Shown: positions 30,990 to 62,790 of the stretch, piece by piece
Layout: the number at the start of each line of letters is the position of its first letter
Position numbering within the stretch: position 1 is the stretch's first letter
DNA from: a virus
Reading direction: 5' to 3' (one strand)
DNA length: 64,000 nt
Virus record (IMG/VR): IMGVR_UViG_3300045988_183062
Span: 14,512-78,511 of that record
The notes under the pieces: model-generated
What the model saw: the letters and a program-made list of their open reading frames with translations, nothing else
Databases searched by the model: none
What the model was told of the DNA's origin: nothing
Made by a program: the position numbers and the translations under genes

Positions 30990-31030
30990 TTGTGCATTCG
31001 TGCGAATTGCGTAGAATTAAAATTGTACAA
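30990..31030 (+). promoter_or_regulatory. Conserved-family promoter copy a (TTGTGC-16[..GTGCGAATTGCG]-TAGAAT)
   Basis: Member of 8-copy element family, see findings. Confidence 0.6.
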
Positions 31031-31261
31031 GCGGAATTGGGTTCCGGTGGGTCTTAACCTCTTCCTGCCGGTGTTTACGGTGTTGTTTTCTCTCACTCTT
31101 ACATGTTGTGTGGTCCGCTTGTATTCACCCCATCGGCTTTTTCCTGGGCCGGTGGTTCATATAAAAGGCTGTGGTTGCTTTTGCTTCCGCAGCTTTTTTG
31201 TTTGTATTCGCGCCTGCACAAAAGACAGGCATTGGTTGTGATGAGCGAAAGGAGTATGAAT

Positions 31262-32947
31262 ATGGCGCTTATCATCGGGATTGTAGCAGTCCTTATTATC
31301 ATCTTCGGCTTTCTGTGCTACAAGAAGGCCCCTCCGACGGAGGCTATCGTCGTGACCGGCTTTGGGTTGTCAAAGCCCAAAGTAGTATCCGGTAAAGGCA
31401 CGTTTGTGCTTCCTGTCTTGCAACGAGCAGACAAACTGAACATGCGGCTTCTGAAGATTGATGTCAAGACCCCGGAAACAGGCGTTAAGACTCAGAATGG
31501 TGTCAGCCTTTGGATTGATTCTGTTGTGACGATTCAGGTTTACAGTGAGAACTCCACTGTGTTGGACGATGAGGTCAAAGCATCTGGTCTGAAGGACGCC
31601 AAGGCGTATATCATGTCCCGCCAGCAGGCAGCTATCTCGAACTTCTTGGGCATGAACGAGCAGGGCATCAACGACAAGGTCAATGACGTTCTGCAGGGCA
31701 ACCTGCGTGAGATTGTCTCCGACATGACCGTTGACCAGATTCTGACAAACCGCAAGCAGATGGCACTGAGCGTCATTGAGAACGCTCGTCCAGACCTCGC
31801 CAAGATGGGCCTTGAGGTCGTGACCTTCAATGTTCAAGACATTAGGGACGCGATTGATGCACAGGGCCACAATCACGGTGTCATCGAAGCTATCGGCATC
31901 GAGCAGGAAGAACTGGTGAAGAAGCAGGCTGAGATTGCTCGTGCCCAGGCTGCTCGCGATGTGGCATGTGCCAAAGCAGATGCTGAGATGGCAGCGAACG
32001 CCAAGGAAGTTGAAGCCCAGACCGCTATCGCACAGCGCAACAACGAGTTGCAGCTTGCCAAGGCAAAGCTGAAGGCAGAAGCTGACAAGGCTGCGGCCGA
32101 CGCAGATGCTGCCGGTCGTATCCAGATGAACCTCCGTGCCAAGGAAATCAAAGAAGCTGAGGCTGACGCAGAGATTGCCAAGCAGAAAAAGATGGTTGAC
32201 CTTGCTGCGCAGGAAGCAGAAGTTCAGCAGCGTAAGTTGGACGCAGAAGTTCGTAAACAGGCTGATGCAGACCTGTACCGCCGTCAGAAAGAGGCGGAGG
32301 CCAAGAAGTACGAGGCTGAGCGTGCGGCCGAGGCTACCAAGTTCGCCAAGCAGCAGGAGGCAGAAGGCATCGAGATGGTCGGTAAAGCTGAGGCTGAAGC
32401 CATTCGCCAGAAAGGTCTGGCAGAGGCCGAAGCCATGAAACAGAAAGCCGAAGCCTACAAACAGTACAACGATGCGGCCGTGGCTGAAATGCTCATTAAG
32501 GTTCTGCCCGACATCGCCAAGAGCGTGGCTCAGCCGCTGTCCAGCATCGACAAGGTCTCCATCATCGGCGGCGATGCCTCCGGCGTATCCGGCGTTTCCG
32601 GTAACGTCCCGGTGCTCATGGCACAGACCATGCAGACGGTGAAGGAAGCCACCGGCATTGATATGGGCGAGATTGTTCGCGCCAATAGCATCCAGGCCAA
32701 GACGGACCGCAACATCCATATCGATGGTGTGGAGTTGGACGAGCCGAAAACTCACATCACCTCCGAGCGTGTCGAAGATGGTTGGATGTTCCATGAGAAG
32801 GACCCCATCACCGGTGAGGACAAAACTTCTTTCCGTCCCGATTTTACGGACGAGGAAAAGGCCATCATAGATGCTCACGCCAAGGCAGCTGAGAATCATG
32901 CTACCACCAACAAAACCAATCCGTATAAAAAGGGCTTCAATAAATAA
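31262..32947 (+). CDS. Flotillin/SPFH (band-7) domain membrane protein with long Ala/Glu/Lys-rich coiled coil
   Basis: RBS AAAGGAG before ATG 31262; N-terminal TM then SPFH-like core; EA-repeat coiled-coil typical of FloT/YuaG. Confidence 0.7.
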   Translation: MALIIGIVAVLIIIFGFLCYKKAPPTEAIVVTGFGLSKPKVVSGKGTFVLPVLQRADKLNMRLLKIDVKTPETGVKTQNGVSLWIDSVVTIQVYSENSTVLDDEVKASGLKDAKAYIMSRQQAAISNFLGMNEQGINDKVNDVLQGNLREIVSDMTVDQILTNRKQMALSVIENARPDLAKMGLEVVTFNVQDIRDAIDAQGHNHGVIEAIGIEQEELVKKQAEIARAQAARDVACAKADAEMAANAKEVEAQTAIAQRNNELQLAKAKLKAEADKAAADADAAGRIQMNLRAKEIKEAEADAEIAKQKKMVDLAAQEAEVQQRKLDAEVRKQADADLYRRQKEAEAKKYEAERAAEATKFAKQQEAEGIEMVGKAEAEAIRQKGLAEAEAMKQKAEAYKQYNDAAVAEMLIKVLPDIAKSVAQPLSSIDKVSIIGGDASGVSGVSGNVPVLMAQTMQTVKEATGIDMGEIVRANSIQAKTDRNIHIDGVELDEPKTHITSERVEDGWMFHEKDPITGEDKTSFRPDFTDEEKAIIDAHAKAAENHATTNKTNPYKKGFNK

Positions 32948-32989
32948 CTGAAGTTCTTTCACACAGTCCCTGCGGGGGCTGTTGCCGCT

Positions 32990-33030
32990 TTAAGAAGACA
33001 GCCTCCACGGGGCGAGCGGCGGGCAACGGG
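32990..33030 (+). repeat. GC-rich structured intergenic repeat, copy 1 (GCCTCCACGGGGCGAGCGGCGGGCAACGG)
   Basis: About 80% identical to 35530-35570; embedded in inverted-repeat hairpins, no T-run. Confidence 0.5.
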
Positions 33031-33080
33031 AAAGGCTCCTGGCGAATAGTCTTCAGAACGAAAAAGAAGGGGAGAAAGCC

Positions 33081-33479
33081 ATGAAAACACAACAGGTCCC
33101 AAACTCTCCCTATTTCATCCATTACGACGATAACGGTTATTACAATGTATCCAAAGATAAGGATGGCAAAGAGCCAATTCCGGAGTCTGAGATGCAAGAG
33201 TTTCTCAGCGCGGTCGCCAATGGTTTGCTCTACATCGAGCAGGAACGAAAGAACAGATACCAGCGTATTGACGAAGCGGAAAAAGCTGCTTTTGCCAGAG
33301 GAGAAGCGAAAGGCAGAGAGGATAAACTCATTGCCACGGTCAAGACGTTGGAGGAAAAACAAGCATTAAGGGAAGAGCAAGAGCGTAAGGCAGACTACGA
33401 AGCGTATACTCATTCTCCGTATTACTGGGGGACAAGGACAGAGTGGGTTCGCCTTTCTCGTGGAGGATGGTGTGATTAA
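33081..33479 (+). CDS. Hypothetical protein
   Basis: RBS GAAGGGGAG. Confidence 0.5.
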   Translation: MKTQQVPNSPYFIHYDDNGYYNVSKDKDGKEPIPESEMQEFLSAVANGLLYIEQERKNRYQRIDEAEKAAFARGEAKGREDKLIATVKTLEEKQALREEQERKADYEAYTHSPYYWGTRTEWVRLSRGGWCD

Positions 33480-33480
33480 C

Positions 33481-33819
33481 ATGATGGGAAGCATTCCAAT
33501 TCCGAACACCAGATTTTATCTAACCAGCGTTGACGGTAAGAAATGGTTTATAACAGAATATTACAGGACTGCACCATTCAATCCTGCAAAAGAAACATAC
33601 GATTTATACAAAGCGTTTGCGGAAGCGTTCCGAGAAAACGAGAGAGAAGAGCAGAAATTTTCCGAGGAACTTAAAGAGGCAGCGAAGAAAGCCTACGCCA
33701 AAGGTTTGTCTGCAGGACGGCACAGCCATCTGTTAGCACCTGCGAGTTTGAGTGAAGGCAGACCGGGACGGGAGCAATATGATGGATTCTATGCGTGGTA
33801 TGCTGCGCATGGGAGGTAA
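33481..33819 (+). CDS. Hypothetical protein
   Basis: ATG 2 nt after previous stop. Confidence 0.45.
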   Translation: MMGSIPIPNTRFYLTSVDGKKWFITEYYRTAPFNPAKETYDLYKAFAEAFRENEREEQKFSEELKEAAKKAYAKGLSAGRHSHLLAPASLSEGRPGREQYDGFYAWYAAHGR

Positions 33820-33823
33820 CGAT

Positions 33824-34399
33824 ATGAAAAAGAAAACGAAAGCAGTGATGCAGATACTTCTCATGCTGGTGATGGCGATTCTGTTTGCATTCGTACCGAT
33901 TTCCTATATGCAGCAGGTTATCAGAACGAACCTGGCTACGGTTGAGCCTTCTCAATTGGAGCAATATGTGAAGAAGCCCATTGCGCTTGACTCTGAAGAC
34001 TATAACATTGTATCCAACATCATTATGTGGGAGCGGCATCAGGCTACAAGCGATGAGCTATCCGGCGATTACGTGACAGCTTTCTATCCGATAAAGGTAT
34101 ACACCAAAAGTGGTGATGATTACATCATCGCGGCCGAGTTTGATGATAGCGAAAAAGGCTCCTATATCTATAGTCATGCTCCTATTAAAGGCAATATCCT
34201 GGCAGTACCGGCAGAACACCTGGAGGAATATCAGGAAGCAATTGGAGACATGAACGCATATCCGTACTATATCAGCGTAGACAGCAGCTCAGACGCCGAG
34301 AATTTTTGGGCATCGTTTCTGTGCGGATTCCTTTCACTGCTGTCTGCAACAAGCGCAGTTCTGCTAATCAAAATGCAAATGGAGGGGGCAAACAACTAA
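33824..34399 (+). CDS. Membrane/secreted hypothetical protein
   Basis: RBS GGGAGG 7 nt before ATG; N-terminal hydrophobic helix, C-terminal TM. Confidence 0.55.
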   Translation: MKKKTKAVMQILLMLVMAILFAFVPISYMQQVIRTNLATVEPSQLEQYVKKPIALDSEDYNIVSNIIMWERHQATSDELSGDYVTAFYPIKVYTKSGDDYIIAAEFDDSEKGSYIYSHAPIKGNILAVPAEHLEEYQEAIGDMNAYPYYISVDSSSDAENFWASFLCGFLSLLSATSAVLLIKMQMEGANN

Positions 34400-34929
34400 T
34401 GGGGTGGTATCACGTAAACAACACCGGGAAAGGCATTACCCTTGGAGACGGTGAGGAAGTCCATTACAACGAGGATTATCTGGCAAAATACGCTCCGACA
34501 AAAGAAGAAGTTCTCGATTCAGTGCCATCTTTCAAAAATGAAGACCTCAAAGGGTATGAATCCTGGCCGCTGTACATGAAATTCGTTGCGGCAGCCGGTG
34601 ATTGGTACAATCTGCGCCGGGCCAAGGACTACGGAAGTGACTGCTTAAAAGAAGATGCACATATCATCTATGCGAATGCACTGTGCCGTGTTTTTGAAAA
34701 ATGCTACGGTTATCCCGCCGGGAGCTTTTACAGCACCTTTGACTACGATGGCAACACGATGATTTTCTGCGCCATTGATTGGCCGCCGAAAGAGTATAAC
34801 GAAAAGCTCGCCACTCTGACCGAGAAAAAGCTCGAAGCTGAACTACGCGAATTTCTGGTCAACGTCACGGGCAATAAGAGTTATGCAAGACGTAATCTGG
34901 AACTCTGTGAGGAATATATCAAGGAATGA
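34399..34929 (+). CDS. Hypothetical protein
   Basis: TAATG overlap with previous; RBS GGAGGGGG. Confidence 0.5.
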   Translation: MGWYHVNNTGKGITLGDGEEVHYNEDYLAKYAPTKEEVLDSVPSFKNEDLKGYESWPLYMKFVAAAGDWYNLRRAKDYGSDCLKEDAHIIYANALCRVFEKCYGYPAGSFYSTFDYDGNTMIFCAIDWPPKEYNEKLATLTEKKLEAELREFLVNVTGNKSYARRNLELCEEYIKE

Positions 34930-35501
34930 AAAGGATAGAACCTAATATCATTGAAACCAACTACTATACCCTCGTATCTGCCAATGAAGGGGTGGGGAAG
35001 ACGTTCTGGTGTAAGCGCCAGATTGCCAAGGTGCTGCGTACCACCTCAGACCGAATCATTGTCTTTGATGTGACAGGGGAGTACGCAGACTTTGTGTTGG
35101 ACCATGACCGTATCGTTCCAGGTCGTATCCCGATGATTCTGCATCAATATAAGATTACGGACGATAAGCCCGTTGTGGCGCATACCATCGAAGTCGATAT
35201 GGCGATGGGGAAGCAGCCCCAACTTATTGTCCATGATGTGAGCCGAACTATGACCTACACATGGCATAAGGGCGTGCTTGCCATTACCGCATCACTCATT
35301 CATTATCTGGCAGGCAGGGAACACACCAAGACCTGGCTATTTTTGAATCTTGACCCGTATTCCTTTAAGGATGAAAGCGAGCCGTCCTGGACGGTGCTCG
35401 AACGGTTTGTAAAGCAGCATGGGCAGGAGGTAATGCCTGTATTTACATCTCGGAAACTCGGCGTGAAAGAAATCAATCGACGACTAAACATCAAATCTTG
35501 A
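34926..35501 (+). CDS. Small P-loop NTPase (Walker A GVGKT)
   Basis: SANEGVGKTFW; ATGA overlap with previous gene. Confidence 0.5.
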   Translation: MKRIEPNIIETNYYTLVSANEGVGKTFWCKRQIAKVLRTTSDRIIVFDVTGEYADFVLDHDRIVPGRIPMILHQYKITDDKPVVAHTIEVDMAMGKQPQLIVHDVSRTMTYTWHKGVLAITASLIHYLAGREHTKTWLFLNLDPYSFKDESEPSWTVLERFVKQHGQEVMPVFTSRKLGVKEINRRLNIKS

Positions 35502-35529
35502 GCGGGGTTCTCCCCGCAGCTGCCTTTAC

Positions 35530-35570
35530 GCAAAGAGGCCTCCACGAGGCGGGCAGCGGGCAACAGCTAC
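35530..35570 (+). repeat. GC-rich structured intergenic repeat, copy 2 (GCCTCCACGAGGCGGGCAGCGGGCAACAG)
   Basis: See copy 1. Confidence 0.5.
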
Positions 35571-35644
35571 GGCTGGCAGACGACTTTGCACTCTAACAAT
35601 CTATCGGGAAACCGAAAACAAATAACATATTTTGGAGGATATTT

Positions 35645-37014: not shown

Positions 37015-37018
37015 GGGA

Positions 37019-38066: not shown

Positions 38067-38083
38067 TTCGGATTAGTGATACG

Positions 38084-38117
38084 CAGCCGCTTCCTTCGGG
38101 AGGTGGCTGCTTTTTTC
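38084..38117 (+). terminator. Hairpin + TTTTTTCG terminator
   Basis: gcagcc..ggctgc stem then T-run. Confidence 0.55.
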
Positions 38118-38131: not shown

Positions 38132-38175
38132 TTGATGATTTGTGCGAATTGCAGATAATAAAAATCAGATACATA
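38132..38175 (+). promoter_or_regulatory. Conserved-family promoter copy b (TTGATG-16[..GTGCGAATTGCA]-GATAAT)
   Basis: See findings. Confidence 0.6.
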
Positions 38176-38194: not shown

Positions 38195-39469
38195 ATGTTT
38201 CCGTTTTTCAAGAAAAAAGAGCCGGTCAAAGCACCTGAGCCCGACGTGATTCACGAAGATGGTGGCATTTGCATTGCCAATCGCTGGTGGTTTGAGCCAG
38301 AAATAGGAGAACTGTCCTTCAATATGACAGATTCTTCTAAGCACAGGAGCTCGGTCATTTCTATCGTGGGGAGCCACGGTACAGGCAAGAATTTCACCAG
38401 CAAGCTTATTCTCTATCGGCTTTGCAAAGAAGGGGCGCAGGCAACAGTTCTTGTGAGCGGGTTGAGCCGACAGAAATATGGATATATGTGCGACCTGTTG
38501 GGCGGTAAAACCGTTTTCCTTGGCGAAAACGCTCACATCAATTTGTTCGATATACGTAAACCAAACGAGGATAGATGTAAAGGTTCTGTGCTGGAGAGAA
38601 AAATTCGTGAATTGCTGGCTGTGTTTAAGACTCTGATGCCCGGCATTATACCAAAGCAAACTGCTCTTTTGGACATGATGCTGCATGAGGTTTACAAAAA
38701 GAAAGGCATTACGCTTGACAACGCGAGCCTGTTTGTAGAAGGGACAAACCAGTACAAAGAGTTTCCTACCATCGAAGACCTGTACATGACCATTAAACTT
38801 TCAAAAGTGAAAGAGCTTGAAGAATTTGCTGACCGGCTTTCGCTTTTCGTTGACGGTCCCTATGGCTGGTTCAACTACAAGACAGATATTGATTGGGACA
38901 GTCCATTCCTTGTTTTGGACTTTATGGAGTATAAAGGCAAAATCAACAAAGATAACAGCGCCAAAGAATTTATGATGGCTTACTGTTTTGAAATCCTGAG
39001 TGAACGGATGCAAAACGATGCAGACAAAAAAGCCATCTTGTTGTGCGATGTGTTTTTTGGCGAAAGTCAAGACGTTATGAAGTATGGCCCTTATATGCTG
39101 GAGCAAGACACCACGCTGGGCTGGAGTAAATATATTTGCCAGAACGCAATGCTGAACAACTGCACAGTAATTTCCGCAACCAGCGTCTTTAACTATGACG
39201 AGGACCTTGCGTTTCTTCACGAAATTATGCTTGATGCCGATGTTCAGGTATATCACCACATTTGGAGCCATCTAGTTCCAGAGGTGGCAAAAGCATGCCA
39301 TCTTACCAAGAAACAGGCGGAGCTCATTTCTGACCTTACTATTGCTCAAGTCTATATTTTGGCTGACGGTAAATTCATTTGGGGACGGGTAGATGCGAGC
39401 GAAGAAGAATACAAAACGCTTACCGAATATCCTCCTGATATCAGAGTTTATGGGAGAGACTGGCAATGA
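38195..39469 (+). CDS. VirB4/DUF87/HerA-like P-loop ATPase paralog with atypical Walker A (GTGKN) and Walker B (LLCDV)
   Basis: IVGSHGTGKNFTSKL aligns to VirB4 ILGSSGYGKTFTAQL in same window; Lys followed by Asn, DE replaced by DV. Confidence 0.55.
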   Translation: MFPFFKKKEPVKAPEPDVIHEDGGICIANRWWFEPEIGELSFNMTDSSKHRSSVISIVGSHGTGKNFTSKLILYRLCKEGAQATVLVSGLSRQKYGYMCDLLGGKTVFLGENAHINLFDIRKPNEDRCKGSVLERKIRELLAVFKTLMPGIIPKQTALLDMMLHEVYKKKGITLDNASLFVEGTNQYKEFPTIEDLYMTIKLSKVKELEEFADRLSLFVDGPYGWFNYKTDIDWDSPFLVLDFMEYKGKINKDNSAKEFMMAYCFEILSERMQNDADKKAILLCDVFFGESQDVMKYGPYMLEQDTTLGWSKYICQNAMLNNCTVISATSVFNYDEDLAFLHEIMLDADVQVYHHIWSHLVPEVAKACHLTKKQAELISDLTIAQVYILADGKFIWGRVDASEEEYKTLTEYPPDIRVYGRDWQ

Positions 39470-41515: not shown

Positions 41516-41983
41516 TTACAGGGCATGATGGCATACATGCTCAAAATCGACGAGCAGTTCTTTCGCAGCTTTCTGCATATACGCCGCAGCCGACTCATCA
41601 TGGTCTTTTTCAGATAAAAGTATCAGGCACGGGCGGTTCATGGCGGTCGAACCACTACAGTGGCAGGAGAGCAATTCTTCTCCAAATTCGTGATTAAGGA
41701 TAGCAGTAAGGCATTCGCCCATCAAGGCACAATCGTCATCCTTTGCCAAAAGCCTATCCGCATCATCGTAGTTAATGCGGCCGTTATCGAGACATACACG
41801 GTCAAGAAACGCCCGAACAGTGTCAGATACAATCATAGCGTCTATAGTCTGGCGATGATTCTCAAGAAAAACATAAAATATAATCTTTTCAATTTCATCC
41901 AGGTAAAAGCCAAAGCCTGTAATGCGAGTCTTGGTATCGGTTTGTGTCATAGGGAACACCTCATCCATCTTTTCTATTTGCAT
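41516..41983 (-). CDS. Hypothetical protein (minus strand)
   Basis: Clean ORF opposite orientation, convergent with upstream genes. Confidence 0.5.
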   Translation of the reverse strand: MQIEKMDEVFPMTQTDTKTRITGFGFYLDEIEKIIFYVFLENHRQTIDAMIVSDTVRAFLDRVCLDNGRINYDDADRLLAKDDDCALMGECLTAILNHEFGEELLSCHCSGSTAMNRPCLILLSEKDHDESAAAYMQKAAKELLVDFEHVCHHAL

Positions 41984-42079: not shown

Positions 42080-42120
42080 TTGTTCATCCGTGCGAATCGA
42101 GTATCATTGTAGGTAAACTG
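42080..42120 (+). promoter_or_regulatory. Conserved-family promoter copy c (TTGTTC-16-TATCAT; spacer GTGCGAATCGAG variant)
   Basis: See findings. Confidence 0.5.
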
Positions 42121-42147: not shown

Positions 42148-42759
42148 ATGAGTGATTTCAACCCGAAAAACGACCCGCAAGTCCAGGCATACATTGCCTT
42201 CGTGGAAGACTTCAAAGAGTTTATTCGCAGAGAGGATAGAGTCGGCAAAGACCAGTACAAGCTGGTCAATCTCTATGGTGAGAAGGGGCTGGATGACCCC
42301 GATGCCAAGATTGTGACTTTGCAGGACGAAAAGGCTCAGCTGCTTGCCGCAGCCAGCTGTGACCTTGCAAAAGCAACGCTCTGGCTGTATTACTTCCGCG
42401 ACAAGTTCACAGACATCGAGCTCGTTGACATCAGAGGGGAAGACTACACTTCCTATCTGAAGCAAATCATCCATAAACTGAACGATAATACGAGTCCGCT
42501 CTACCTGGATGCGTGGGATATGCTTATCCGCCTTGTGGCAGAAGACTGTATGCCGGATGCTTATGTCGGCGACAAGAAGAAATGGCAGCTGGTATACACC
42601 AACATGTACTGGAATGTCCACCTGGCGATGAAATCTCTCAAGACGGGTGGCTCCATCAAACGCATGGTGGACAAGCTGCCGAAGGATGCCGATAAAATCG
42701 GGAACCTGGCTTTCAAGTATTTCAACGACGCGCTGATTGCTTACGAGATGAATCCGTGA
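42148..42759 (+). CDS. Hypothetical protein, paralog A1 (pairs with 43987-44598)
   Basis: RBS AAAGGAG 7 nt upstream; ~35% identity to A2 incl. C-terminal DADKIGNLAFKYF/DADKITNLAFVLF. Confidence 0.55.
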   Translation: MSDFNPKNDPQVQAYIAFVEDFKEFIRREDRVGKDQYKLVNLYGEKGLDDPDAKIVTLQDEKAQLLAAASCDLAKATLWLYYFRDKFTDIELVDIRGEDYTSYLKQIIHKLNDNTSPLYLDAWDMLIRLVAEDCMPDAYVGDKKKWQLVYTNMYWNVHLAMKSLKTGGSIKRMVDKLPKDADKIGNLAFKYFNDALIAYEMNP

Positions 42760-42776: not shown

Positions 42777-42825
42777 TTGCGTGTCTGTGCGAATTGCATA
42801 AAATGAAAATTGTAAGCTAAATAAG
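42777..42825 (+). promoter_or_regulatory. Conserved-family promoter copy d (TTGCGT-16-TAAAAT)
   Basis: See findings. Confidence 0.6.
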
Positions 42826-42885
42826 TGTCTTGAGGAGAACGGCTCGACCGCTCTTTCTTTTTACTATGCAGAAAGAGGTTTCAGC

Positions 42886-45235: not shown

Positions 45236-45282
45236 GCACGCATGTGATTCGTAAACGCATGTGTGCAGTTTTTGCTCTATTT
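45236..45282 (+). terminator. Rho-independent terminator
   Basis: aactgcacgcatgtg..cgcatgtgtgcagtt hairpin + TTTTTG. Confidence 0.65.
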
Positions 45283-45302
45283 CGTGCAATGCAAGAAAAT
45301 TT

Positions 45303-46736
45303 ATGAGCAATGCAAACAAGCCAATCATAGCAATCCAAATCTATTACGAACAGCGAATCGGAGCAGAACGAGAAGTCCTGAAAACATTTTTTACCTTCAT
45401 TGGCTGCTTGGTCAGGACGACCCCAATGTCTGCAGAAGATATGCTGAAACAGCATAAGACTCTGGTGCATCCAGAGAATAAGCAGACTACGTATCTGTTT
45501 CTCACTGACCGCTATCCCGGCGATGCAGAACCGGCTGAGAATGAATTGTGGTGCGCTTTTAGTATTAAGAAACAGGAACTGATTATCAATAACGCTGCGG
45601 CTATACAGAGCCATTCTTCCGTAATGCAGTTTGGGAAGGAAGCGCTCGACAACATCATCTTCCACATCTGGCGAGAAGATTCGATGGCAGTAGCGAGTCT
45701 CCAGCACATCAATGAGGCCTTCTGGCAGTTTGACATGTTCGCGCACCTGGAAATCAAGAGTACGTTTCAGGTCCTGAAAATGAGCGAGTTGAAGACTCTT
45801 AGCCCAAAGAACGATTACAAGCTGCCGGATAACAGCTACTTCAACGAGATAGCTGATTCCTTCATTGGGCTGGAAAAGCATTGCCGAACAGGGCTTCAAA
45901 GCGTTTATTCCGTGTACACCTGTGTGAACGCCCAGAGGCATCTGAGAGAGCTTACGGCCACGTTGGAGACATTTTCATCGTTGAGAATAAGGCTACTTTC
46001 GGTTCTTGAGTCGGTAGAGAAGCTGCTTTCAGAGCTGAACAAAATCTACCGCGTAGACCCTGGCTTCGTGCCTATGTACAGCCTGGCTGCTGCACTGTGC
46101 GATGGGCAGCCTCAATTTGCCCTCGATGCCCGGCCATACCTGCGCGAAGCCATAGAGCACGCCACGAAAGAGACAACGCCTTTTACGGCCGAGATATTCC
46201 TGCAATACGGCATCTCCGAGAAGCAAATGTATTCTGACAAGGAAAGAGCCTTGCAATGCTTCCAGAAAGTGCTGCAACTGGATGATTCCTCTTACAAGGC
46301 AATGTTTCAAATTGCTTGCCTGGATGCGGCCGACAGGAAGTACCAGCAGGCAAAGGCAGGCTTCAAGGAGGTAATCGTCACCATCCAAGGCGGCGACGCC
46401 AATCCCGATTGGGGCCTTCTATCTCTGGAGGAGATGCTCTATGTGTACCGTGCTTACATCTGGCTTGCAAAGCTTGCATTGGTCTCAGATGGTGAATTTG
46501 CCATTGGAGCGCCCATTGCGATGGCGCTTAACGCAGCGGATGCGTTTAGGCAAGCAACGATGCTGCATGATTGTTGCGACTATGAAAAGTACCAGCATGT
46601 TGGGAGCTATTATGGCTCCGGCATTGTTGTGAGAGCTATGTTTGTAGTGCTGAGAGATATGGTGGGAGATGCGGAGATAAATAGGGAGTTAGGGGAAGAG
46701 ATTGAAAACAATATTAAATGCTATGGAATCAAATGA
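45303..46736 (+). CDS. Hypothetical protein with TPR-like helical repeats in C-terminal half
   Basis: Long ORF; start uncertain (45261-45303). Confidence 0.5.
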   Translation: MSNANKPIIAIQIYYEQRIGAEREVLKTFFTFIGCLVRTTPMSAEDMLKQHKTLVHPENKQTTYLFLTDRYPGDAEPAENELWCAFSIKKQELIINNAAAIQSHSSVMQFGKEALDNIIFHIWREDSMAVASLQHINEAFWQFDMFAHLEIKSTFQVLKMSELKTLSPKNDYKLPDNSYFNEIADSFIGLEKHCRTGLQSVYSVYTCVNAQRHLRELTATLETFSSLRIRLLSVLESVEKLLSELNKIYRVDPGFVPMYSLAAALCDGQPQFALDARPYLREAIEHATKETTPFTAEIFLQYGISEKQMYSDKERALQCFQKVLQLDDSSYKAMFQIACLDAADRKYQQAKAGFKEVIVTIQGGDANPDWGLLSLEEMLYVYRAYIWLAKLALVSDGEFAIGAPIAMALNAADAFRQATMLHDCCDYEKYQHVGSYYGSGIVVRAMFVVLRDMVGDAEINRELGEEIENNIKCYGIK

Positions 46737-47335: not shown

Positions 47336-47363
47336 TTGCGCAATTCTCAAAACATGCTATAAT
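47336..47363 (+). promoter_or_regulatory. Sigma70 promoter TTGCGC-16-TGcTATAAT followed by leader hairpin
   Basis: Consensus hexamers; hairpin cagcctcc..ggaggct + TTTTTATTTTT at 47390-47442 before RBS. Confidence 0.55.
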
Positions 47364-47455
47364 ACAGACATCACAACAGGTTCACAGCCTCCTATCGTAA
47401 TCAGTATCACACTGACTGCGGTGGGAGGCTTTTTATTTTTAGGAGGTAAAATACT

Positions 47456-47991: not shown

Positions 47992-48040
47992 TTGCTGTAT
48001 CGTGCGATTTGCGTACAATTAAAGGTGCAAGAAGACCCCC
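47992..48040 (+). promoter_or_regulatory. Conserved-family promoter copy e (TTGCTG-16[..GTGCGATTTGCG]-TACAAT)
   Basis: See findings. Confidence 0.55.
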
Positions 48041-48066: not shown

Positions 48067-48387
48067 ATGAATACTTGCACTCTGAAATTTGAAGCTACCG
48101 TATTCCGCAATGATGACGACAACAACCTCGAGAGTTTTTCGGCATCCATCAGCGTTCCCGTGGAGAACGATGACGAAGTGATTGGGAACATGCTGGGCGA
48201 TGAGAAGCTGATTGTTCATGCTGTTGCAGCACTGTACAACCTTATCAGCGACCTGCACCCCAACTGGCTGGACGGCGAGGATACCAGCCTGACGCTGGAT
48301 ATTTCCATCGACGGCAGCGAGGCCCAGTCACGCGGCGGTCTCGTCGCTATGAAAGGGAACGGCTTCACTTTCGACCTCGAAGATTAA
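48067..48387 (+). CDS. Small acidic protein, duplicated cassette copy 1
   Basis: RBS AAAGGAGA; ~45% identity to 48572-48899 protein. Confidence 0.55.
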   Translation: MNTCTLKFEATVFRNDDDNNLESFSASISVPVENDDEVIGNMLGDEKLIVHAVAALYNLISDLHPNWLDGEDTSLTLDISIDGSEAQSRGGLVAMKGNGFTFDLED

Positions 48388-48400: not shown

Positions 48401-48439
48401 GGAGCCTTGCCTGCAGCAGCGGGTGAGGCTCCTTTTTTG
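48401..48439 (+). terminator. Terminator ggagcc..ggctcc + TTTTTTG
   Basis: Near-identical to terminator at 48912-48951. Confidence 0.7.
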
Positions 48440-48571
48440 TTGCGTAGCTGCTAAACGGATAAGAGAGCGTAGCTGCAAAAACCGTAGGCGCGACGGTTGA
48501 CGCGATATGCGAACCGCATACAATAATAAGTACCACAGGAAACCAATAACACATACAAAGGAGAATACCAC

Positions 48572-48951: not shown

Positions 48952-49256
48952 TGCTGCATGGCCGCGATATGCAGTTGACACGATATGCGACCACCATATA
49001 CTAATAGATATTGAACAGCGCTGATAGTGTTGCTTCGGTAAAGACGAATAGGGTCTTGAGCGGACCTTAAACGCTCACTGCGAGAACGGCCTGCCTGCTG
49101 CTAACAGGCGGGTCTTTTCTTTTTATACGATGGCAAAGACTCTCTTTCAAAATGTGTACAGAAGATTAAAAACAAACTACTATCGTTGTATTTCGCCACA
49201 TTTACAGGTAAAATTATAGATAGAGAAAGCAAAAAAAGCACATTGCATCCACAAAA

Positions 49257-51068: not shown

Positions 51069-51162
51069 CAAGCATAAACTATATAAGATTAAAACGGCGA
51101 TTACGGAATAACAGTTAGTTCCGAAACGAATTGCAGCTTGAAAGACTGCGTAAGATTAAGAA

Positions 51163-51201
51163 CACCCCACCACTTGTTAAAGCGATGGGGGGGTTCTTTT
51201 T
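51163..51201 (+). terminator. Terminator ccccacc..gggggggt + TTCTTTTTG preceded by conserved GACTGCGTAAGATTAAGAACA box
   Basis: Hairpin + T-run. Confidence 0.65.
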
Positions 51202-53486: not shown

Positions 53487-53765
53487 AACCGCAAAGAGAT
53501 GCGGTGATAGCAAACAAAAATAACGTAGAACCAATAGTGGCAGAATATACAATGCTGAATATATGCAAAATTCTTTGTTATGTAATTTTGCCGTAGCAGC
53601 CCGTGTGACTGCGTAAGATTGAAACGAGGACGGTATCGACTACATGTCGTCCGAAAGCATCGTAGCAGCCCATGTGGCTGCGTAAGGTTGAACGTCCATC
53701 CGTAAATCACGGGTGGGCGTTATTTTTGTACCCGCAAAACTCAAAACAAAATACGATAAAAAGTG

Positions 53766-53815
53766 CTTGACCATCTGTGCGAATTGCCTACAATTGATAT
53801 TGTAAGATAAATAAT
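53766..53815 (+). promoter_or_regulatory. Conserved-family promoter copy f (TTGACC-16[..GTGCGAATTGCC]-TACAAT) followed by leader terminator hairpin 53822-53862
   Basis: See findings. Confidence 0.65.
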
Positions 53816-53893
53816 TGTACCCCGGTAGAACGCTTTACGTGTTTGCCGGGGTATTCTTTTTGTGTTGATACGTATTCTTGGAGGATTCAAACC

Positions 53894-56722
53894 ATGACTC
53901 TCGCTAACCTGTCTACTGAGCAACAGGACCTTGTACGCCTGGCTCTCGCAGGCAGAAATATACTCTGTGACGCTTGCATCGGCAGCGGTAAAACATCGAC
54001 CATCAACGTGTTGTGTAACGAGTTTGATGCCTCCAAACAGATTCTGTATCTGACCTATAACCGTCTGCTAAAACTTGATGCACAGGAGAAAATCCTGAAC
54101 GATAACGTCACCGTGCAGAACTACCACGGCTATGCTTCTAAACTCCTCTATCGACACGGAATCCGTAACATCGGACAGGGCGAACAAATTAAAAAAGCGC
54201 TCGACTTGCATGTCCCGGTCGGTCGCTATGACGTGCTCATCATCGATGAGTACCAAGATATTAACGAAGAAATCTCACGTTTGCTTGAATACATCAAGGA
54301 AGAAAACCCCACCATGCAAATTATTGCGGTGGGGGATATGGCGCAGAAAATCTACGACACCACGTCCTTGGACATTTGGAAATTCATCCACGGTTTCCTT
54401 GGCGCACACACGCAGGTCAATTTCACACAATGTTTCCGTCTATCCCACAACTTGGCCGAGCGACTTGGCACTATCTGGAATAAGGAAATCAATGGTGTAA
54501 ATGAGAACTGCGAAGTCAAGTCCATGACGAAAGACGAGGTTATCGAGTACCTGAACGACTTGGACCCCAAGAATGTCCTTTGCCTTGGCGCTCGTACCGG
54601 CCAGATGGCCGCAGTTTTGAATGCCTTGGAAGAGCGCCCCGATAATCTTTACGACAAAAAACATGTTTATGCCAGCATCAAAGACAACGACGGCGAAAAA
54701 AGCGTGGCTCCGAACAGCAATGTGGGCATCTTCACGACATTCGATGGCAGCAAGGGCATGGAGCGCCCTATCTGCGTAGTCTTTGATTTTACCGAGGATT
54801 ACTGGGCGACCCGTATGCGCCAGCCTCTGACTCGCTACGAAATCATGCGCAACCTCTTTTGCGTAGCTGCGAGCCGTGGCAAGCAGGAGGTCATCTTCGT
54901 CAAACCCGATAAGCGTAGCCTCGTGAGCGACAAGACACTAATGACCCCTGTCAAGACTCGCACCACCTTTAAGGACAAATTCGACATCAGTGAAATGTTC
55001 GATTTCAAGTTCGATGAAGATGTGGATGCGTGCTACAACCTTATCACGGCCAAGCAGGTATTCCAACAAGACCAGACGGAAATCGAAATCAAGCACTCCG
55101 ATGCGATGATTGACCTGTCTCCCTGCATTGGCATCTACCAGCAGGCAAACTTCTTCGATTTTTACGACATCGACAGCGCCATCGCCTTCTTCATGTACCT
55201 ACACAAGGACAAGATGGCGAAGGTTCCAACCACTTGGAAGTCAGTTGAGCAAAAAGTTCTGTTTCTTACAATGCTGATGACGAGCCAGGACCGTTATATC
55301 AAGCAGGTAGAACTGCCTTTCATCACGCCGGAGCAGGCTAAAGCACTGACCGACCGTCTTTCTACTATGTTCACGCATGACGAAGAGGTTCAGGAACGCG
55401 CCGAGTTGAAACTTGTTGTGGAGCAGGATGAATTGAAACAGCCTGTCACTTCTCTTATCGTCAGTGGCATGGCCGATGTAGTCAAAGATAATAAAGTTTA
55501 TTGCCTTAAATTTGTGTCGAACCTCGCGCACAAGCATTTCATCCAGTGCGCCTGCTATATGCTCGCTACAGGCCTGCCTACCGGTGTACTTTGGAACATT
55601 CGGGATAACACGATGTATGAAGTCGAAATTCCGGACCGCACGGCGTTTTTGAACGCAGTGGTGAAGTGTATCACAAAGGGCGTCTATACGGAAGCTCTCT
55701 CCTACAATCTGGAGAAAGACTACTCCCAAAGCCTCGATACGATTCTTGACCGAGTTATGTCCGACACTTCGCTGCCTGAATTTGATACCGGCGGCAACAT
55801 TGTAGAGGAAACGCCGCAGGACGAAGGTGTTGCTATTATCAAGCAGGGTGAGCAGTATGTCATCCTGGATGCCGGAACCCGCTCTATCGTGGATGGCACA
55901 GCAGTAAACGGCTACGACACGATTCTGGCCGCCTGCGAAGCATACGTAAAGCAGAACAAGAAAGCCACGGAGGAATCGGTGAACAAAAAAGAACTTCTCC
56001 ATATCATCGAACAGTGGCTTGATGACCATGCAGAGTTTGAGCATCAGATGTCTTGCGTGGCAGTCGATATTGAGAACCATGTCGGCCCGTATTCAGGCTA
56101 TTCAACCTTCTCTACCTATGTAGTTCGCAAGATGCTCAAAGACTGCGGCTTGGTCATCGACTTCAACGAACGTCAGCTTCTCAAGGTCTGGAAAGTCCGC
56201 GAGAAGAAGCGCCCGAAGCCTGTCACCCAGTACAGCACGGCTCAAGCCCCGAAACAGGTAGTTTTGAATCCAGCTGACAGCTTTGAGCAGATGCTGAACA
56301 GCTTGCAGAGCATGGGCGTGGATGTCAAAGTCGCGGAAGAGACCGCAACGGAACCTTACGACTTCTCCCAGTACAAGCGTTTGCCGCCGGAGCGTAAGAC
56401 GTATGATTCTGAGCCCGTCGGCTGGTGGAAGGATGGGGAAGAGCAGTATAAAAAAGAGAAAGAAGCTCTTCCGGCCGACTATCGAGTTATTCGCTCCTCT
56501 AAGCTGTCTAAACCCGGTGATGTACGCTACGTTATCATGGAAGAGGATTCCAACACTGTGCTGGACGACGCAAACGGGTATGGGTACAAATCCGTTCAGG
56601 CTGCGCACAAGGGCTATGGCTATAAGCGGCGCAACGGTGGCAGTTTTGGTTCCAAGAAGAAAGAAAAGAGTGAAGCAAAGCCTCAGACCACGGGCGAGCA
56701 GCTTTCGTTTGGAGGTCTGTGA
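53894..56722 (+). CDS. UvrD/PcrA-like superfamily-1 DNA helicase with long C-terminal extension
   Basis: Motif I CIGSGKTST, motif II VLIIDEYQDI; RBS GGAGGA. Confidence 0.75.
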   Translation: MTLANLSTEQQDLVRLALAGRNILCDACIGSGKTSTINVLCNEFDASKQILYLTYNRLLKLDAQEKILNDNVTVQNYHGYASKLLYRHGIRNIGQGEQIKKALDLHVPVGRYDVLIIDEYQDINEEISRLLEYIKEENPTMQIIAVGDMAQKIYDTTSLDIWKFIHGFLGAHTQVNFTQCFRLSHNLAERLGTIWNKEINGVNENCEVKSMTKDEVIEYLNDLDPKNVLCLGARTGQMAAVLNALEERPDNLYDKKHVYASIKDNDGEKSVAPNSNVGIFTTFDGSKGMERPICVVFDFTEDYWATRMRQPLTRYEIMRNLFCVAASRGKQEVIFVKPDKRSLVSDKTLMTPVKTRTTFKDKFDISEMFDFKFDEDVDACYNLITAKQVFQQDQTEIEIKHSDAMIDLSPCIGIYQQANFFDFYDIDSAIAFFMYLHKDKMAKVPTTWKSVEQKVLFLTMLMTSQDRYIKQVELPFITPEQAKALTDRLSTMFTHDEEVQERAELKLVVEQDELKQPVTSLIVSGMADVVKDNKVYCLKFVSNLAHKHFIQCACYMLATGLPTGVLWNIRDNTMYEVEIPDRTAFLNAVVKCITKGVYTEALSYNLEKDYSQSLDTILDRVMSDTSLPEFDTGGNIVEETPQDEGVAIIKQGEQYVILDAGTRSIVDGTAVNGYDTILAACEAYVKQNKKATEESVNKKELLHIIEQWLDDHAEFEHQMSCVAVDIENHVGPYSGYSTFSTYVVRKMLKDCGLVIDFNERQLLKVWKVREKKRPKPVTQYSTAQAPKQVVLNPADSFEQMLNSLQSMGVDVKVAEETATEPYDFSQYKRLPPERKTYDSEPVGWWKDGEEQYKKEKEALPADYRVIRSSKLSKPGDVRYVIMEEDSNTVLDDANGYGYKSVQAAHKGYGYKRRNGGSFGSKKKEKSEAKPQTTGEQLSFGGL

Positions 56723-57342
56723 TGGGAAATAGCGATACTAAGATGAAGCCAAGACATAACGGCGTCCATGAATCCTTGAAAGAACGTAATGACGCGATTT
56801 ACCGAGATTATATGGATGGCGTGTGTGTCGTGGATTTGGCCGATAAATATGGCGTGTCTGGCTATAGGATTGTACAAATCCTTCGTTCAGACTCTGAATA
56901 CGGCTTGGAAAAGACACGCCTTAACTGGCAAAGAAACACACAGGCAAAGCGTGCCAGAAACAAGGAAATCTACGAAGATTACATAAATGGTGTGCCCTAT
57001 AATACCATCGCCGAAAAGTGGGGCATGACCAGCAGCGGCATTCAGGCAATCGCGAAGAAGTACCAAAAAGACCTCGAAATCAACTTCGAGAGAACCGTTC
57101 GCTCTGCACCCAAAACAAAGAAATCCGAAATCGATTGGGCCGAGAGGAAAAGACGATTGATTGCCCAAGCCAGAGCTATTCCAAATCAGTCTCTATCGAA
57201 TCTTGCCAAGCAATATGGATTAACGCCAAATGAAGCAAGAAAAATTTTAAGAGAAGCGGGTATTATCAAGTGCCCGCGCAACGACTTGAGTGATGAAGCT
57301 CTTTGGGCCGGAATCGGAGGCAGCTATGACGACATCTATTGA
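56719..57342 (+). CDS. DNA-binding protein with three tandem HTH (sigma-70 region-4-like) repeats
   Basis: Three ~45-aa repeats (IYRDYMDGVCVVDLADKYGVS..; IYEDYINGVPYNTIAEKWGMT..; SLSNLAKQYGLTPNEARKIL). Confidence 0.55.
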   Translation: MMGNSDTKMKPRHNGVHESLKERNDAIYRDYMDGVCVVDLADKYGVSGYRIVQILRSDSEYGLEKTRLNWQRNTQAKRARNKEIYEDYINGVPYNTIAEKWGMTSSGIQAIAKKYQKDLEINFERTVRSAPKTKKSEIDWAERKRRLIAQARAIPNQSLSNLAKQYGLTPNEARKILREAGIIKCPRNDLSDEALWAGIGGSYDDIY

Positions 57343-61234: not shown

Positions 61235-61239
61235 AGGCC

Positions 61240-61300
61240 TTGCCATTCCTTTCGAATTGACTACAATATTGATTGTACGATAGATACCAAACACATAAAG
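61240..61300 (+). promoter_or_regulatory. Conserved-family promoter copy h (TTGCCA-16[..CGAATTGAC]-TACAAT) with leader hairpin 61337-61376
   Basis: See findings. Confidence 0.55.
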
Positions 61301-61398
61301 ATGTTACGATTTTCTATCGTTCACAATCTGTTTTAAGAGCGGACTTATCCCATTCCGGGGTAGGCCCGCTCTTTTTTATTTGAAAGGAGAAATTTCCA

Positions 61399-62556
61399 AT
61401 GCAAAGCAAAAACACATTCTTGCGGAGAGCAGCGGCAGCGATTGCGGCACTCTTCATCCTCAGCTTCGCAGGCTGCGGTCAGACCCCGATTGATTCGGGT
61501 AGTCTTCCTGTATCCGGGGTCGTCTCAGAAAGTCCTGTCTCTGACAGCGAGCAGACGGCTGGCGTAACGGAAGACGGCAGCTTTACTATCCACTTCATTG
61601 ATGTGGGGCAGGCGGACTCTGCTCTCGTTACCTGTGATGGGCATTCTATGCTTATTGATGGCGGCAATGTAGATGATTCCAACCTCGTGTATTCTGTTCT
61701 GGGACGTGAGACAGACGGGCATCTGGATTACGTTATCGGCACACATGCCCATGAGGACCATATTGGAGGTCTTTCCGGTGCATTCGAAGCCGTGACGGCC
61801 GACGTCACTTATTGCCCTGTTACAGAGTATGACAGCAAAGCCTTTCGGAGCTTTAAGCAGCGAGCGGAAGAAAAAGGCAACGGCCTTACGATTCCGTCGG
61901 TAGGGGATACATTCTCCCTTGGCGATGCCGAAGTGACTGTTATCGCTGTAAACTCAGTTCCGGACGATACCAACAATACCTCCATTGTCCTACGCATCGT
62001 TTATGGAGAAACCTCATTCCTGTTTACAGGTGATGCAGAAGAGCCAGCCGAAGATGTTATCCTGCAGTCTGGTCAGGACATCCAGTCCACTGTTCTGAAG
62101 GTAGGCCATCATGGTTCTCGAACCTCCACATCCGAAGCGTTCCTTGACACTGTGAACCCTGCCTATGCTGTTATTTCCTGCGGCAAGGGTAACAGCTATG
62201 GACACCCCCATGATGTGACGCTGGCAAAACTCCAGAGCAAGGATATTGAAGTTTTCAGGACCGACGAGATGGGAGACATCTACTGCACCTCAGATGGTAA
62301 AGACGTAACTTTCACCTATGGCGAATATCACCAGGCAGCAGAAAGCACTACCACCGATACAGTCGAAGTTGAGGAGTCACAGCAAAAGGATACGACGGTC
62401 AGCACCTATGTTCTGAACACAAGTTCTATGAAGTTTCATAAGCCTAACTGCTCCGCTGTAGCTCAAATGAGCGATGCAAACCGCAAAGACTATACCGGTT
62501 CCCGCGATGACCTAATCGAACAGGGCTATACACCTTGCGGGTATTGCAATCCGTAA
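61399..62556 (+). CDS. Lipoprotein with ComEC/Rec2-type metallo-beta-lactamase domain (predicted secreted hydrolase/nuclease)
   Basis: Lipobox SFAGC; HFIDVGQADS, THAHEDHIGG, VGHHGS motifs; C-terminal Cys pairs. Confidence 0.65.
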   Translation: MQSKNTFLRRAAAAIAALFILSFAGCGQTPIDSGSLPVSGVVSESPVSDSEQTAGVTEDGSFTIHFIDVGQADSALVTCDGHSMLIDGGNVDDSNLVYSVLGRETDGHLDYVIGTHAHEDHIGGLSGAFEAVTADVTYCPVTEYDSKAFRSFKQRAEEKGNGLTIPSVGDTFSLGDAEVTVIAVNSVPDDTNNTSIVLRIVYGETSFLFTGDAEEPAEDVILQSGQDIQSTVLKVGHHGSRTSTSEAFLDTVNPAYAVISCGKGNSYGHPHDVTLAKLQSKDIEVFRTDEMGDIYCTSDGKDVTFTYGEYHQAAESTTTDTVEVEESQQKDTTVSTYVLNTSSMKFHKPNCSAVAQMSDANRKDYTGSRDDLIEQGYTPCGYCNP

Positions 62557-62728
62557 ATGGTATCAACTGTTCCGTTCTTGATTAGATATTAACTCATAGC
62601 AATACAAAATCTATCCAATTCTATCCAATAACCAATCCAATCTATTACTAATATGGTAAACGCGACCCTTCATCTCAAATATGACGATGCCACTCGTATC
62701 CAGTCATTCATCCAACAAAAGCTCTTGG

Positions 62729-62790
62729 TTGTCAAAATATGCGAATTGCGTAAGATAAAAGTGTACGATAGATAACATTATCGAAAAGGC
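62729..62790 (+). promoter_or_regulatory. Conserved-family promoter copy g (TTGTCA-16[..TGCGAATTGCG]-TAAGAT) with leader hairpin 62828-62866
   Basis: See findings. Confidence 0.6.

Follow-up and report, generated by a model that had tools for sequence, protein, structure and literature searches.

We analyzed a 64,000-nt stretch of DNA (hereafter the window) from IMG/VR record IMGVR_UViG_3300045988_183062, in which an original prediction had described eight similar promoters with an unusually conserved spacer. The promoters belong to a conjugative megaplasmid of ~245 kb from gut Clostridia that is common in human-gut metagenomes, although IMG/VR files the contigs of this element as viral. Exact window proteins were indexed in 280-509 blocks of public metagenome assemblies, and the longest contigs encoding them were repeatedly 228-249 kb. 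Each promoter carries an asymmetric sequence box at a fixed position between the -35 and -10 hexamers, and we tentatively interpret this box as the operator of a plasmid-encoded regulator.

Conjugation genes occupy the left part of the window, where a type IV coupling protein (4598-6769), a VirB4-like ATPase (9736-12444), and an M23 peptidase are encoded. A type IV secretion system (T4SS) pilin gene and a RecD2-type helicase gene cut by the locus end were seen immediately to the left of the window. The nearest annotated replicons were large gut Oscillospiraceae plasmids (VirB4 identity 37-39%), namely the 247.5-kb plasmid of Subdoligranulum variabile (37%) and a 142-kb plasmid of Vescimonas fastidiosa. 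A phage identity was rejected, since comparison of 10 large proteins with PHROGs gave no reliable structural match and only a tape-measure hit at E = 8.8e-4. A Y-family polymerase gene (25897-27207) stands just upstream of a promoter-rich region that encodes flotillin/SPFH, AcrVA2-like, and NADAR proteins, a UvrD-like helicase with a PD-(D/E)XK signature, an RlaP nucleotidyltransferase, a sortase, a secreted metallo-beta-lactamase-fold protein, and many proteins of no known family. This cargo is partly anti-defence-like and mostly without assigned function, and by analogy the region appears to resemble the establishment/anti-defence regions of conjugative plasmids.

Promoter copies in the window

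The window contains 11 copies of the promoter, nine strong and two degenerate, all on the plus strand and spanning 29987-62756. A scan with a 28-nt position weight matrix (PWM) found none in positions 1-29900. All eight copies of the original prediction exist, with the TTG that had been placed at 53766 beginning at 53767. The predicted promoters are listed below.

29987-30014, + strand: strong copy overlooked in the original prediction, TTGCCA-N4-GCGCGAATTGG-C-TACAAT; PWM score 34.1 (leave-one-out 26.5); next gene 30078-30584 (168 amino acids [aa])
30990-31017, + strand: promoter of the flotillin/SPFH ... AcrVA2-like operon; upstream terminator 30930-30961; structured leader of 237 nt, terminator-like hairpin 31167-31199
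38132-38159, + strand: -10 GATAAT; upstream terminator 38083-38110; short leader of 28 nt, then the gene of a 424-aa P-loop protein (38195-39469)
42080-42107, + strand: variant box GTGCGAATCGA, -10 TATCAT; next gene 42148-42759; divergent to the minus-strand gene 41516-41950
42777-42804, + strand: promoter of the operon with the NADAR-domain gene; leader begins GTAAGCTAAATAAG; terminator-like hairpin 42834-42862
47992-48019, + strand: box GTGCGATTTGC; next gene 48067-48387 (106 aa)
48497-48524, + strand: degenerate copy with the geometry of the strong copies, TTGACG-N4-ATGCGAACCGC-A-TACAAT; PWM score 17.9, below the shuffle maximum of 21; directly after terminator 48401-48432
48975-49002, + strand: degenerate copy, TTGACA-N4-ATGCGACCACC-A-TATACT; long leader with terminator 49088-49114
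53767-53794, + strand: top-scoring copy (PWM 40.4), promoter of a UvrD-like helicase gene (53893-56721) and a triple-helix-turn-helix (triple-HTH) gene; upstream terminator 53691-53721; leader begins GTAAGATAAATAA; next, hairpin with T-run (53819-53861)
61240-61267, + strand: box TTTCGAATTGA; next gene encodes the metallo-beta-lactamase-fold protein (61399-62556)
62729-62756, + strand: box ATGCGAATTGC, -10 TAAGAT; next gene 62886-63218 (110 aa)

Four further copies occur in the 8.5 kb to the right of the window, on a metagenome contig that is identical across the region, which gives the element at least 15 copies so far. Between 29.9 and 64 kb, nearly each long intergenic gap has a copy oriented with the downstream gene, and the transcription units are co-directional and often insulated by terminators on both sides. 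Placement just after a terminator, which had been noted for several copies, was found for 30990, 38132, 48497, 48975, and 53767. The AACCG/AACTG variant of the box, as seen at degenerate copy 48497, was also found in relatives.

Architecture and conservation of the promoter

Copies share the layout TTGC-N7-(G)TGCGAAyyG(C)-N-TAnAAT, in which the -35 and -10 hexamers are always 16 bp apart and the asymmetric box (G)TGCGAAyyG is fixed at about -25 to -16. The geometry proposed at the outset (TTGnnn, a 16-bp spacer, and TAnAAT) was present in all eight original copies, with deviating -10 hexamers at 38132, 42080, and 62729. All 11 window copies have the co-directional, intergenic TTGnnn/TAnnnT arrangement with a spacing of 16-18 bp that characterizes sigma-70/sigma-A promoters. 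On sequence grounds, they are probably genuine sigma-A-type promoters of one element-specific class, with transcription predicted to start at G36. The conserved helix P1 of the leader RNAs described below begins at G36, 8 nt past the -10, so the predicted start agrees with the RNA.

Strong copies had PWM scores of 32-40, compared with a maximum of 21 in 100 shuffles, and kept scores of 25-37 in leave-one-out analysis. The box GTGCGAATTGC occurs seven times in the window at ≤1 mismatch (shuffles: mean 1.7, maximum 5). Its conservation, the central claim of the original prediction, is position-specific, with the flanks and the three bases after TTG free to vary. In 71 non-redundant copies, T12, G13, C14, G15, and A16 were each kept in 69-71 and G20 in 66, and TTG and TA..AT were nearly always kept, while positions 5-6, position 9, and everything upstream of -7 were random and position 22 was partly variable. 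Such position-specific conservation indicates constraint rather than recent duplication. Because the 71 copies had been ascertained with the PWM, the geometry was re-tested by anchoring on the TGCGAA hexamer alone, which occurred in 632 distinct contexts. TAnnnT was found exactly 11 nt downstream of the hexamer in 131 of these (2-13 at each other offset) and TTG exactly 11 nt upstream in 146 (1-24 at each other offset).

Three AATTG motifs phased at about 10 bp had been reported across the -10 region of the family; we found this pattern at 53767 only (AATTG at motif positions 16 and 26 and ATTG at 33). A pair of (A)ATTG motifs at positions 16/17 and 32/33, 16 bp apart, is present in five of the 11 window copies.

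Several known promoter and operator types were compared with the box and rejected. An extended -10 (TGn) does not fit, as T19-G20 is followed in all copies by two bases (C21 and n22) before T23. A sigma-H/ComX CGAAT or extracytoplasmic function (ECF) CGAA -10 does not fit either, since there is no information upstream of TTG (positions -29 to 0). A MerR-type spacer activator site would require a spacer of 19-20 bp, not 16 bp, and a palindrome, which the box is not. Single-strand (Frpo-type) leading-region promoters, in which the stem of a long imperfect hairpin recreates the -35 and -10, are not matched, as conservation stops at the 28-bp core and some 15 bases of transcript; no conserved partner arm was seen in the upstream profile, for which no dedicated inverted-repeat search was run. 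Regulator boxes were compared by eye with their consensus sequences. The box is one base off the Spo0A box (TGNCGAA), lacks the second half of the Firmicute LexA box (CGAAC-N4-GTTCG), and in most copies lacks the TACA-TGTA dyad of BlaI/CopY; for Rex, only a half-site (TTCACAA) was found, and it lies in the leader linker. A TACAAT-N4-ATTGTA dyad is perfect in two window copies (53767 and 61240) and near-perfect in three more; the remaining copies lack it, and it is not conserved among relatives.

Distribution of the promoter family

The strict pattern TTG-N8-TGCGAATTGC-N-TANAAT was searched in 185,579 species-representative genomes (596 Gb) and gave 11 stretches, of which ~10 are chance matches in unrelated phyla. 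The sole true relative was a 224-kb contig of a Clostridiales metagenome-assembled genome. The same pattern gave at least 119 stretches in IMG/VR, and the family counts that follow rest on these, that is, on the matches listed. A PWM scan of these loci, the search proposed earlier, yielded at least 249 instances, at least 132 of them distinct. Where a locus had several copies, all were on one strand in 62 of 64 cases, with a median spacing of 2.6 kb.

The whole S. variabile plasmid (OY725878.1) contains neither the motif nor TGCGAA-N5-TAnnnT; promoters of that bacterial group therefore do not generally have the box. Nor does the plasmid have a comparable over-represented word in the spacer or a triple-HTH protein. 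A megablast search of 30-50 kb against annotated phage and plasmid collections found no close DNA relatives. A full-text literature search found the box and the leader sequence in no relevant paper, and a 2026 preprint on gut conjugative megaplasmids of >300 kb ("Hodors") does not mention promoters. By the genome comparisons above, the motif is specific to this element lineage.

The first genes behind the copies fall into at least 52 mutually unrelated clusters, most without a known family; they include genes for a PLD-type nuclease and TnpB-like proteins. At loci L120 and L024, TnpB/Cas12f-like proteins are encoded directly behind box promoters, one of 521 aa (Pfam Cas12f1-like_TNB, E = 1.7e-4) and one of 581 aa with no family match that looks TnpB-like by eye. 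A 250-aa protein with five tandem HTH-like repeats is encoded behind a GUACGAUAGAUAGC leader.

Leader RNAs and terminators

We defined a leader terminator as a hairpin of -8 kcal/mol or stronger with a T-run, located between promoter and start codon. By this definition, 30 of the 52 first-gene clusters have one, as do six of the 11 window copies (30990, 42777, 48975, 53767, 61240, and 62729); the short-leader copies 38132, 42080, and 47992 have none. In many units, these terminators constitute a second regulatory layer ahead of the ribosome-binding site, one that the original prediction had overlooked.

The original prediction also held that the first ~20 transcribed bases are conserved. About half of the copies have such a conserved start, which takes several forms (GTACGATAGATAAC, GTAAGATAAATAA, and GTACAAGCGG). 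Rather than forming a DNA operator in phase with the box, these bases begin leader RNAs that contain intrinsic terminators. One leader class begins with GUACGAUAGAUA(A/C)C, starts 8 nt past the -10, and was found behind copies 61240 and 62729 and in at least 20 distinct relatives. Its two members in the window are as follows.

61275-61377, + strand: leader RNA of the GUACGAUAGAUA(A/C)C class with 5' box, hairpins, linker TTCACAATCTG, and terminator 61335-61377
62763-62858, + strand: leader RNA of the same class with P1 GUACG/CGUAU, box hairpin, variable P3, linker AUUCACAAUUUCGC, and terminator 62822-62858; covariance-model match 66.4 bits

The class fold consists of P1 (GUACG/CGUAC), a box-derived hairpin in varying registers, a variable P3, and the linker AAUUCACAAUUYYGC, with a strong intrinsic terminator and then a ribosome-binding site at the 3' end. 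This class, whose leaders start GUACGAUAGAUAAC, has a three-way junction of ~45 nt followed by the linker and its own terminator; it precedes many unrelated cargo genes and is always fused to the box promoter (window and loci L018-L136). A covariance model gave 34 matches, 20 of them distinct, with pairing in 92% of cells of an alignment that was fitted to the model itself. The only compensatory changes were in P3, where three of four pairs had changed on both sides; P1 is invariant and therefore uninformative on covariation. RNAalifold on a MAFFT alignment recovered the terminator only, and the upstream helices required the covariance-model alignment. The GUACGAUAGAUAAC leader had no match in Rfam apart from sub-threshold ones (L20_leader, 23 bits against a gathering score of 58.7). 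The linker CAATTTCGC resembles the reverse complement of the box, but linker and box do not co-vary, and we treat the resemblance as a coincidence.

A -10-like TAnnAT (TACGAT or TAAGAT) stands at +2 to +7 in 20 of the 71 non-redundant copies (28%), against a background of 1-5 per position, mostly in a single leader class.

Candidate regulators

The original prediction had concluded from the spacer that a shared regulator or a dedicated sigma-type factor reads these promoters. The first part gained weight, as a rigid, lineage-specific box marks nearly every unit; the second did not, as no sigma factor or sigma-70 region 2 domain was found among the genes with Pfam calls in the ~79 kb of the element that were inspected. 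Of the four regulators named at the time, one is now better supported.

56722-57342, + strand: gene of the triple-HTH protein (206 aa), second gene of the operon behind copy 53767

This protein has three Mor/HTH_23/sigma-r4-like units, which match Pfam families and PHROG "late transcriptional activator" families, and one unit matches Sigma70_r4 (E = 3.6e-5). It is encoded within the predicted regulon, and a 174-aa paralog directly follows a promoter copy that lies 3 kb beyond the right end of the window. Among first genes behind the motif, the most frequent (54 of 245 instances) encodes a 175-aa triple-unit protein (Mor/HTH_23/HTH_28/sigma-r4-like). When loci were ascertained by protein instead, a box promoter was found 116-169 nt upstream of the triple-HTH gene in 79 of 80, the sole exception being cut by the contig end. 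This link, the strongest one observed, spans three ortholog groups that are only 32-43% identical, each with a leader terminator. An AlphaFold model (pLDDT 69) has three 3-helix units linked by long helices; neither a PDB sequence search nor Foldseek on the model found anything significant, and homolog searches with the protein returned only close relatives. By association, the triple-HTH protein is the best candidate reader of the box.

The other candidates lost ground. The BlaI-like and XRE genes (27.5-28.2 kb) have a different, consensus-like promoter of their own and no homolog in any motif-centred relative. The winged-HTH candidate that had been placed at 14202 corresponds to protein 14103-15467, which has no Pfam or PHROG match, and so nothing connects it to the box. 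The minus-strand genes 29427-29840 and 41516-41950 were also considered as regulators and rejected, being mutually unrelated and without a domain match.

Cassette exchange at promoter copies

Copies of the promoter lie at junctions of mosaic blocks. In locus L085, the 300 bp upstream are of the L057 type (99% identity) and the 300 bp downstream match the L084 type (92%), the two types meeting within the core, and several other pairs share one flank only, breaking at the box edge. The many similar promoters thus also serve as crossover points for cassette exchange. Elsewhere in the window, the 2.7 kb at 45260-47929 are replaced in L006 (17066-18144) by a DUF4238 gene, with the right breakpoint ~60 bp upstream of copy 47992.

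Another kind of border was observed inside the flotillin ... AcrVA2-like operon. Two matches to hepatitis delta virus (HDV)-like ribozymes (Rfam RF02682), at 32984-33055 and 35519-35587 on the plus strand, flank a five-gene block (33081-35501); they score 47 bits (gathering score 44) and 37.9 bits (E = 1e-3). In locus L004, which is 99.9% identical, precisely 33028-35537 are missing, and the two ends overlap by 27 bp within the ribozyme copies. As this deletion ends in the ribozymes, they appear to be intra-operon processing sites and cassette recombination borders.

Other promoter-like sites and repeats

Two other promoters with a 16-bp spacer, at 28248-28275 (minus strand) and 47336-47363 (plus strand), contain GCGCAATTC, which is similar to the reverse complement of part of the box (GAATTGCG), possibly by chance. 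The former is placed to drive the BlaI-like/XRE pair (TTGACGAATTAGCGCAATTCCGTATAAT), and the latter precedes gene 47456-47938. At 15802-15830 (plus strand), ahead of a thioredoxin-like gene (15946-16611), the spacer of a promoter-like TTGAGA-N17-TATAAT with a TG extension contains ACGAATTCGT, a perfect palindrome. Locus L147 has a degenerate family member at 2282-2309 (TTGCTATAAGATACGAAGTGAGTACAAT, PWM score 18.7, followed by GGGTATTGTAG), some 4.4 kb to the left of the window and just upstream of the T4SS pilin gene; a variant of the promoter may serve the conjugation genes.

Short repeats containing CGTAGC occur at 53592-53700, 51117-51163, 48443-48473, and 15731-16944, and clusters of them are also intergenic in the conjugation part. 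Upstream of promoter 53767 there are two copies of the hairpin GTAGCAGCCC(G/A)TGTG(A/G)CTGCGTAAG(A/G)TTGAA, and a related sequence (...CTGCGTAAGATTAA) is present at 51146.

Interpretation of the spacer box

We favor, at somewhat less than an even chance, the explanation that the box is the operator of a plasmid-encoded DNA-binding regulator controlling all these promoters, with autoregulated repression as the favored mode. A shared, element-encoded reader is the parsimonious explanation for a position-specific box with rigid geometry that is specific to the lineage and marks nearly every unit. Each sigma-A-type copy would start a co-directional unit of variable cargo genes, and a plasmid-encoded protein, for which the triple-HTH protein from within the regulon is the candidate, would bind the box and place all copies under joint control. 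The promoters would fire in a burst in a cell that lacks the factor, such as one the plasmid has only just entered, and would be damped by negative feedback as the factor accumulates. The location of the box in the spacer would suit occlusion of the polymerase, and leader terminators may add a second layer in many units. In keeping with such a regulon, one promoter-operator module stands before many variable operons (11 + 4 copies on the element and at least 52 first-gene clusters).

Several observations weigh against this explanation. Simple repression leaves unexplained why 30 of 52 leader types, among them the ones before triple-HTH genes, carry a terminator. Neither a dyad nor a convincing repeat was found in the asymmetric box, and Mor-family proteins in phage Mu are activators, not repressors. 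Identity among the triple-HTH orthologs falls to 32% and their recognition helices are only partly conserved, yet the box is invariant; hence there is no co-variation of protein and DNA, and the reader could be another factor. Neither an oriT nor a recognizable relaxase domain was located in the ~79 kb seen, about one third of the element, and for this reason we can only infer a leading-region or establishment setting.

The terminators are more readily accommodated if the box is the loading site of a Q-like, promoter-coupled antitermination or activation factor, possibly the triple-HTH protein itself. Bound to the spacer box, such a factor would engage RNA polymerase during initiation or shortly afterwards, and terminators in the leaders and within the operons would be read through only by transcripts from these promoters. 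We regard this, the main rival explanation, as possible though rather unlikely. The box lies between -35 and -10 like the Q-binding element of lambda, and its absolutely rigid geometry to both hexamers is what would be expected of a factor that contacts polymerase. Strong terminators are present in 30 of 52 leader types, in all three triple-HTH groups, and in six of 11 window copies, and the HTH units match Mor/C "late transcriptional activator" families. Processive antitermination is, moreover, common in Gram-positive conjugative elements, as for conAn (PMC8191782) and canT (PMC11658703). Of the features of Q-type control, however, the copies have the leader terminator and not a universal pause element: the -10-like sequence at +2 to +7 exceeds background (20 of 71 copies against 1-5), yet it occurs in 28% of copies only and mostly in one leader class. 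No Q-family protein was found by Pfam among the genes scanned or with precomputed calls in the ~79 kb, and no NusG paralog or ConAn1-like protein was recognized. Copies 38132, 42080, and 47992 have no terminator to overcome, known Q systems have one promoter per genome, and a factor gene behind such a terminator would require leaky read-through to start. The more ambitious proposal, that box, triple-HTH protein, and leader terminators form an undescribed promoter-coupled antitermination system in which the GUACGAUAGAUAAC leader is a new class of cis-regulatory RNA gating cargo and anti-defence genes, is in our judgment doubtful. Under it, the three-HTH protein would recognize the fixed tripartite promoter at dozens of sites on the megaplasmid and allow polymerase past the leader terminators.

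Two further explanations are less likely. The copies could be a mobile promoter cassette homogenized by recombination, in which the ~28-bp core is a crossover point and no trans-acting reader exists. That promoter cores coincide with mosaic junctions (L085 and other flank combinations), and that copies lie between terminators and bound variable genes, would agree with this. Recombination should, however, homogenize the whole core, yet positions 5-6, 9, and in part 22 vary while TGCGAA is invariant, and other cassette borders carry no promoters (the two HDV-like ribozymes and the left end at 45260). We consider this explanation improbable, and cassette shuffling is better seen as a consequence of many similar promoters. 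Alternatively, a tripartite promoter could be read by a dedicated element sigma factor, a modified polymerase, or a host-specific factor. Three rigidly spaced blocks (TTGC, TGCGAA, and TAnAAT) could suit one multi-domain protein, and the invariance of the box from one divergent element to another would point to a reader that is itself highly conserved. Sigma factors are among the weak top fold matches of the triple-HTH model, none of which is significant, and one unit matches Sigma70_r4. This is nonetheless the least probable explanation, and we give it very little credence: the -35 TTG and -10 TAnAAT are canonical for sigma-A, no sigma-70 region 2 domain was found in the inspected DNA, and a sigma-H/ComX- or ECF-like reading of CGAAT lacks a conserved -35 at the needed distance. 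The box is also absent from 247 kb of a related Oscillospiraceae plasmid, and its chance-level occurrence in 596 Gb of genomes argues against a general host factor.

Almost all cargo genes of this widespread element are without assigned function. The promoter signature offers a sequence-only way to delimit the regulon, to list candidate establishment and anti-defence genes in gut Clostridia, and to obtain a candidate regulator-operator pair, and its copies show how cargo cassettes swap between plasmids. If the box does dock a polymerase-coupled factor, it would represent a new type of promoter-embedded control.

Comparison with known systems

Plasmid regulons with a repeated promoter-operator module are already known. 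What appears new here is an asymmetric box at an invariant spacer position, a candidate reader with three HTH units, a scale of dozens of units, and the coupling to leader terminators and a repeated leader RNA.

Small regulators that control many promoters through core-overlapping operators with negative feedback include KorA/KorB of IncP plasmids, ArdK/StbA/KorA of the IncW plasmid R388, and the Aca regulators of anti-CRISPR operons. Their operators are palindromic, read by dimers, and found in Proteobacteria, whereas the box is asymmetric and its candidate reader is monomer-like with three tandem HTH units. The late promoter PR' of phage lambda, with qut, combines a Q-binding element in the promoter spacer, a sigma-dependent pause, and a downstream terminator. 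It shares with the present promoters a fixed DNA element between -35 and -10 and an intrinsic terminator between promoter and genes. The lambda pause element is AACGAT, and one leader class here has TACGAT at +2 to +7, with a pause-like element in 28% of copies; lambda has one such promoter per phage, whereas there are dozens here, and no Q homolog was found in the inspected DNA. Promoter-early stem-loop (PeSL) cassettes of T4-type phages, in which a promoter and stem-loop terminators flank hypervariable genes, are similar in that promoter copies coincide with recombination junctions. They differ in belonging to phages and in their unrelated sequence, while the present copies are on a plasmid and have a distinct box in the spacer that is more strongly constrained than the sequence around it.

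In plasmid p576 of Bacillus, conserved strong promoters with Reg operators precede several variable establishment operons, one of which contains the repressor gene (PMC8708921). For its EGeRS2 promoters and the Reg576 repressor, binding and transient expression were demonstrated (PMC8708921). Like the present element, p576 is a conjugative plasmid of a Gram-positive host with one conserved sigma-A module per operon of variable, mostly uncharacterized establishment or anti-defence genes. In p576 one copy stands before the regulator gene, and here one stands before the gene of the candidate, the triple-HTH protein. The p576 operators are dual heptamers (TTATCCCnnTTATCCC) upstream of the -35 and sometimes after +1, in contrast to an asymmetric box inside the spacer, and the p576 regulator is a ribbon-helix-helix protein rather than a candidate three-HTH protein. 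There are four copies and no leader terminators in p576, compared with at least 15 copies here, known from sequence alone. The antitermination RNAs conAn2 of pLS20 (PMC8191782) and canT of Tn916 (PMC11658703), from Gram-positive conjugative elements, act from the leader or in cis. They share with the leaders described here a structured RNA at the start of terminator-containing units on conjugative elements. conAn2 and canT are large, and each element has a single such RNA where its conjugation operon begins, whereas in the present element a three-way junction of ~45 nt, with a linker and its own terminator, is repeated before many unrelated cargo genes.

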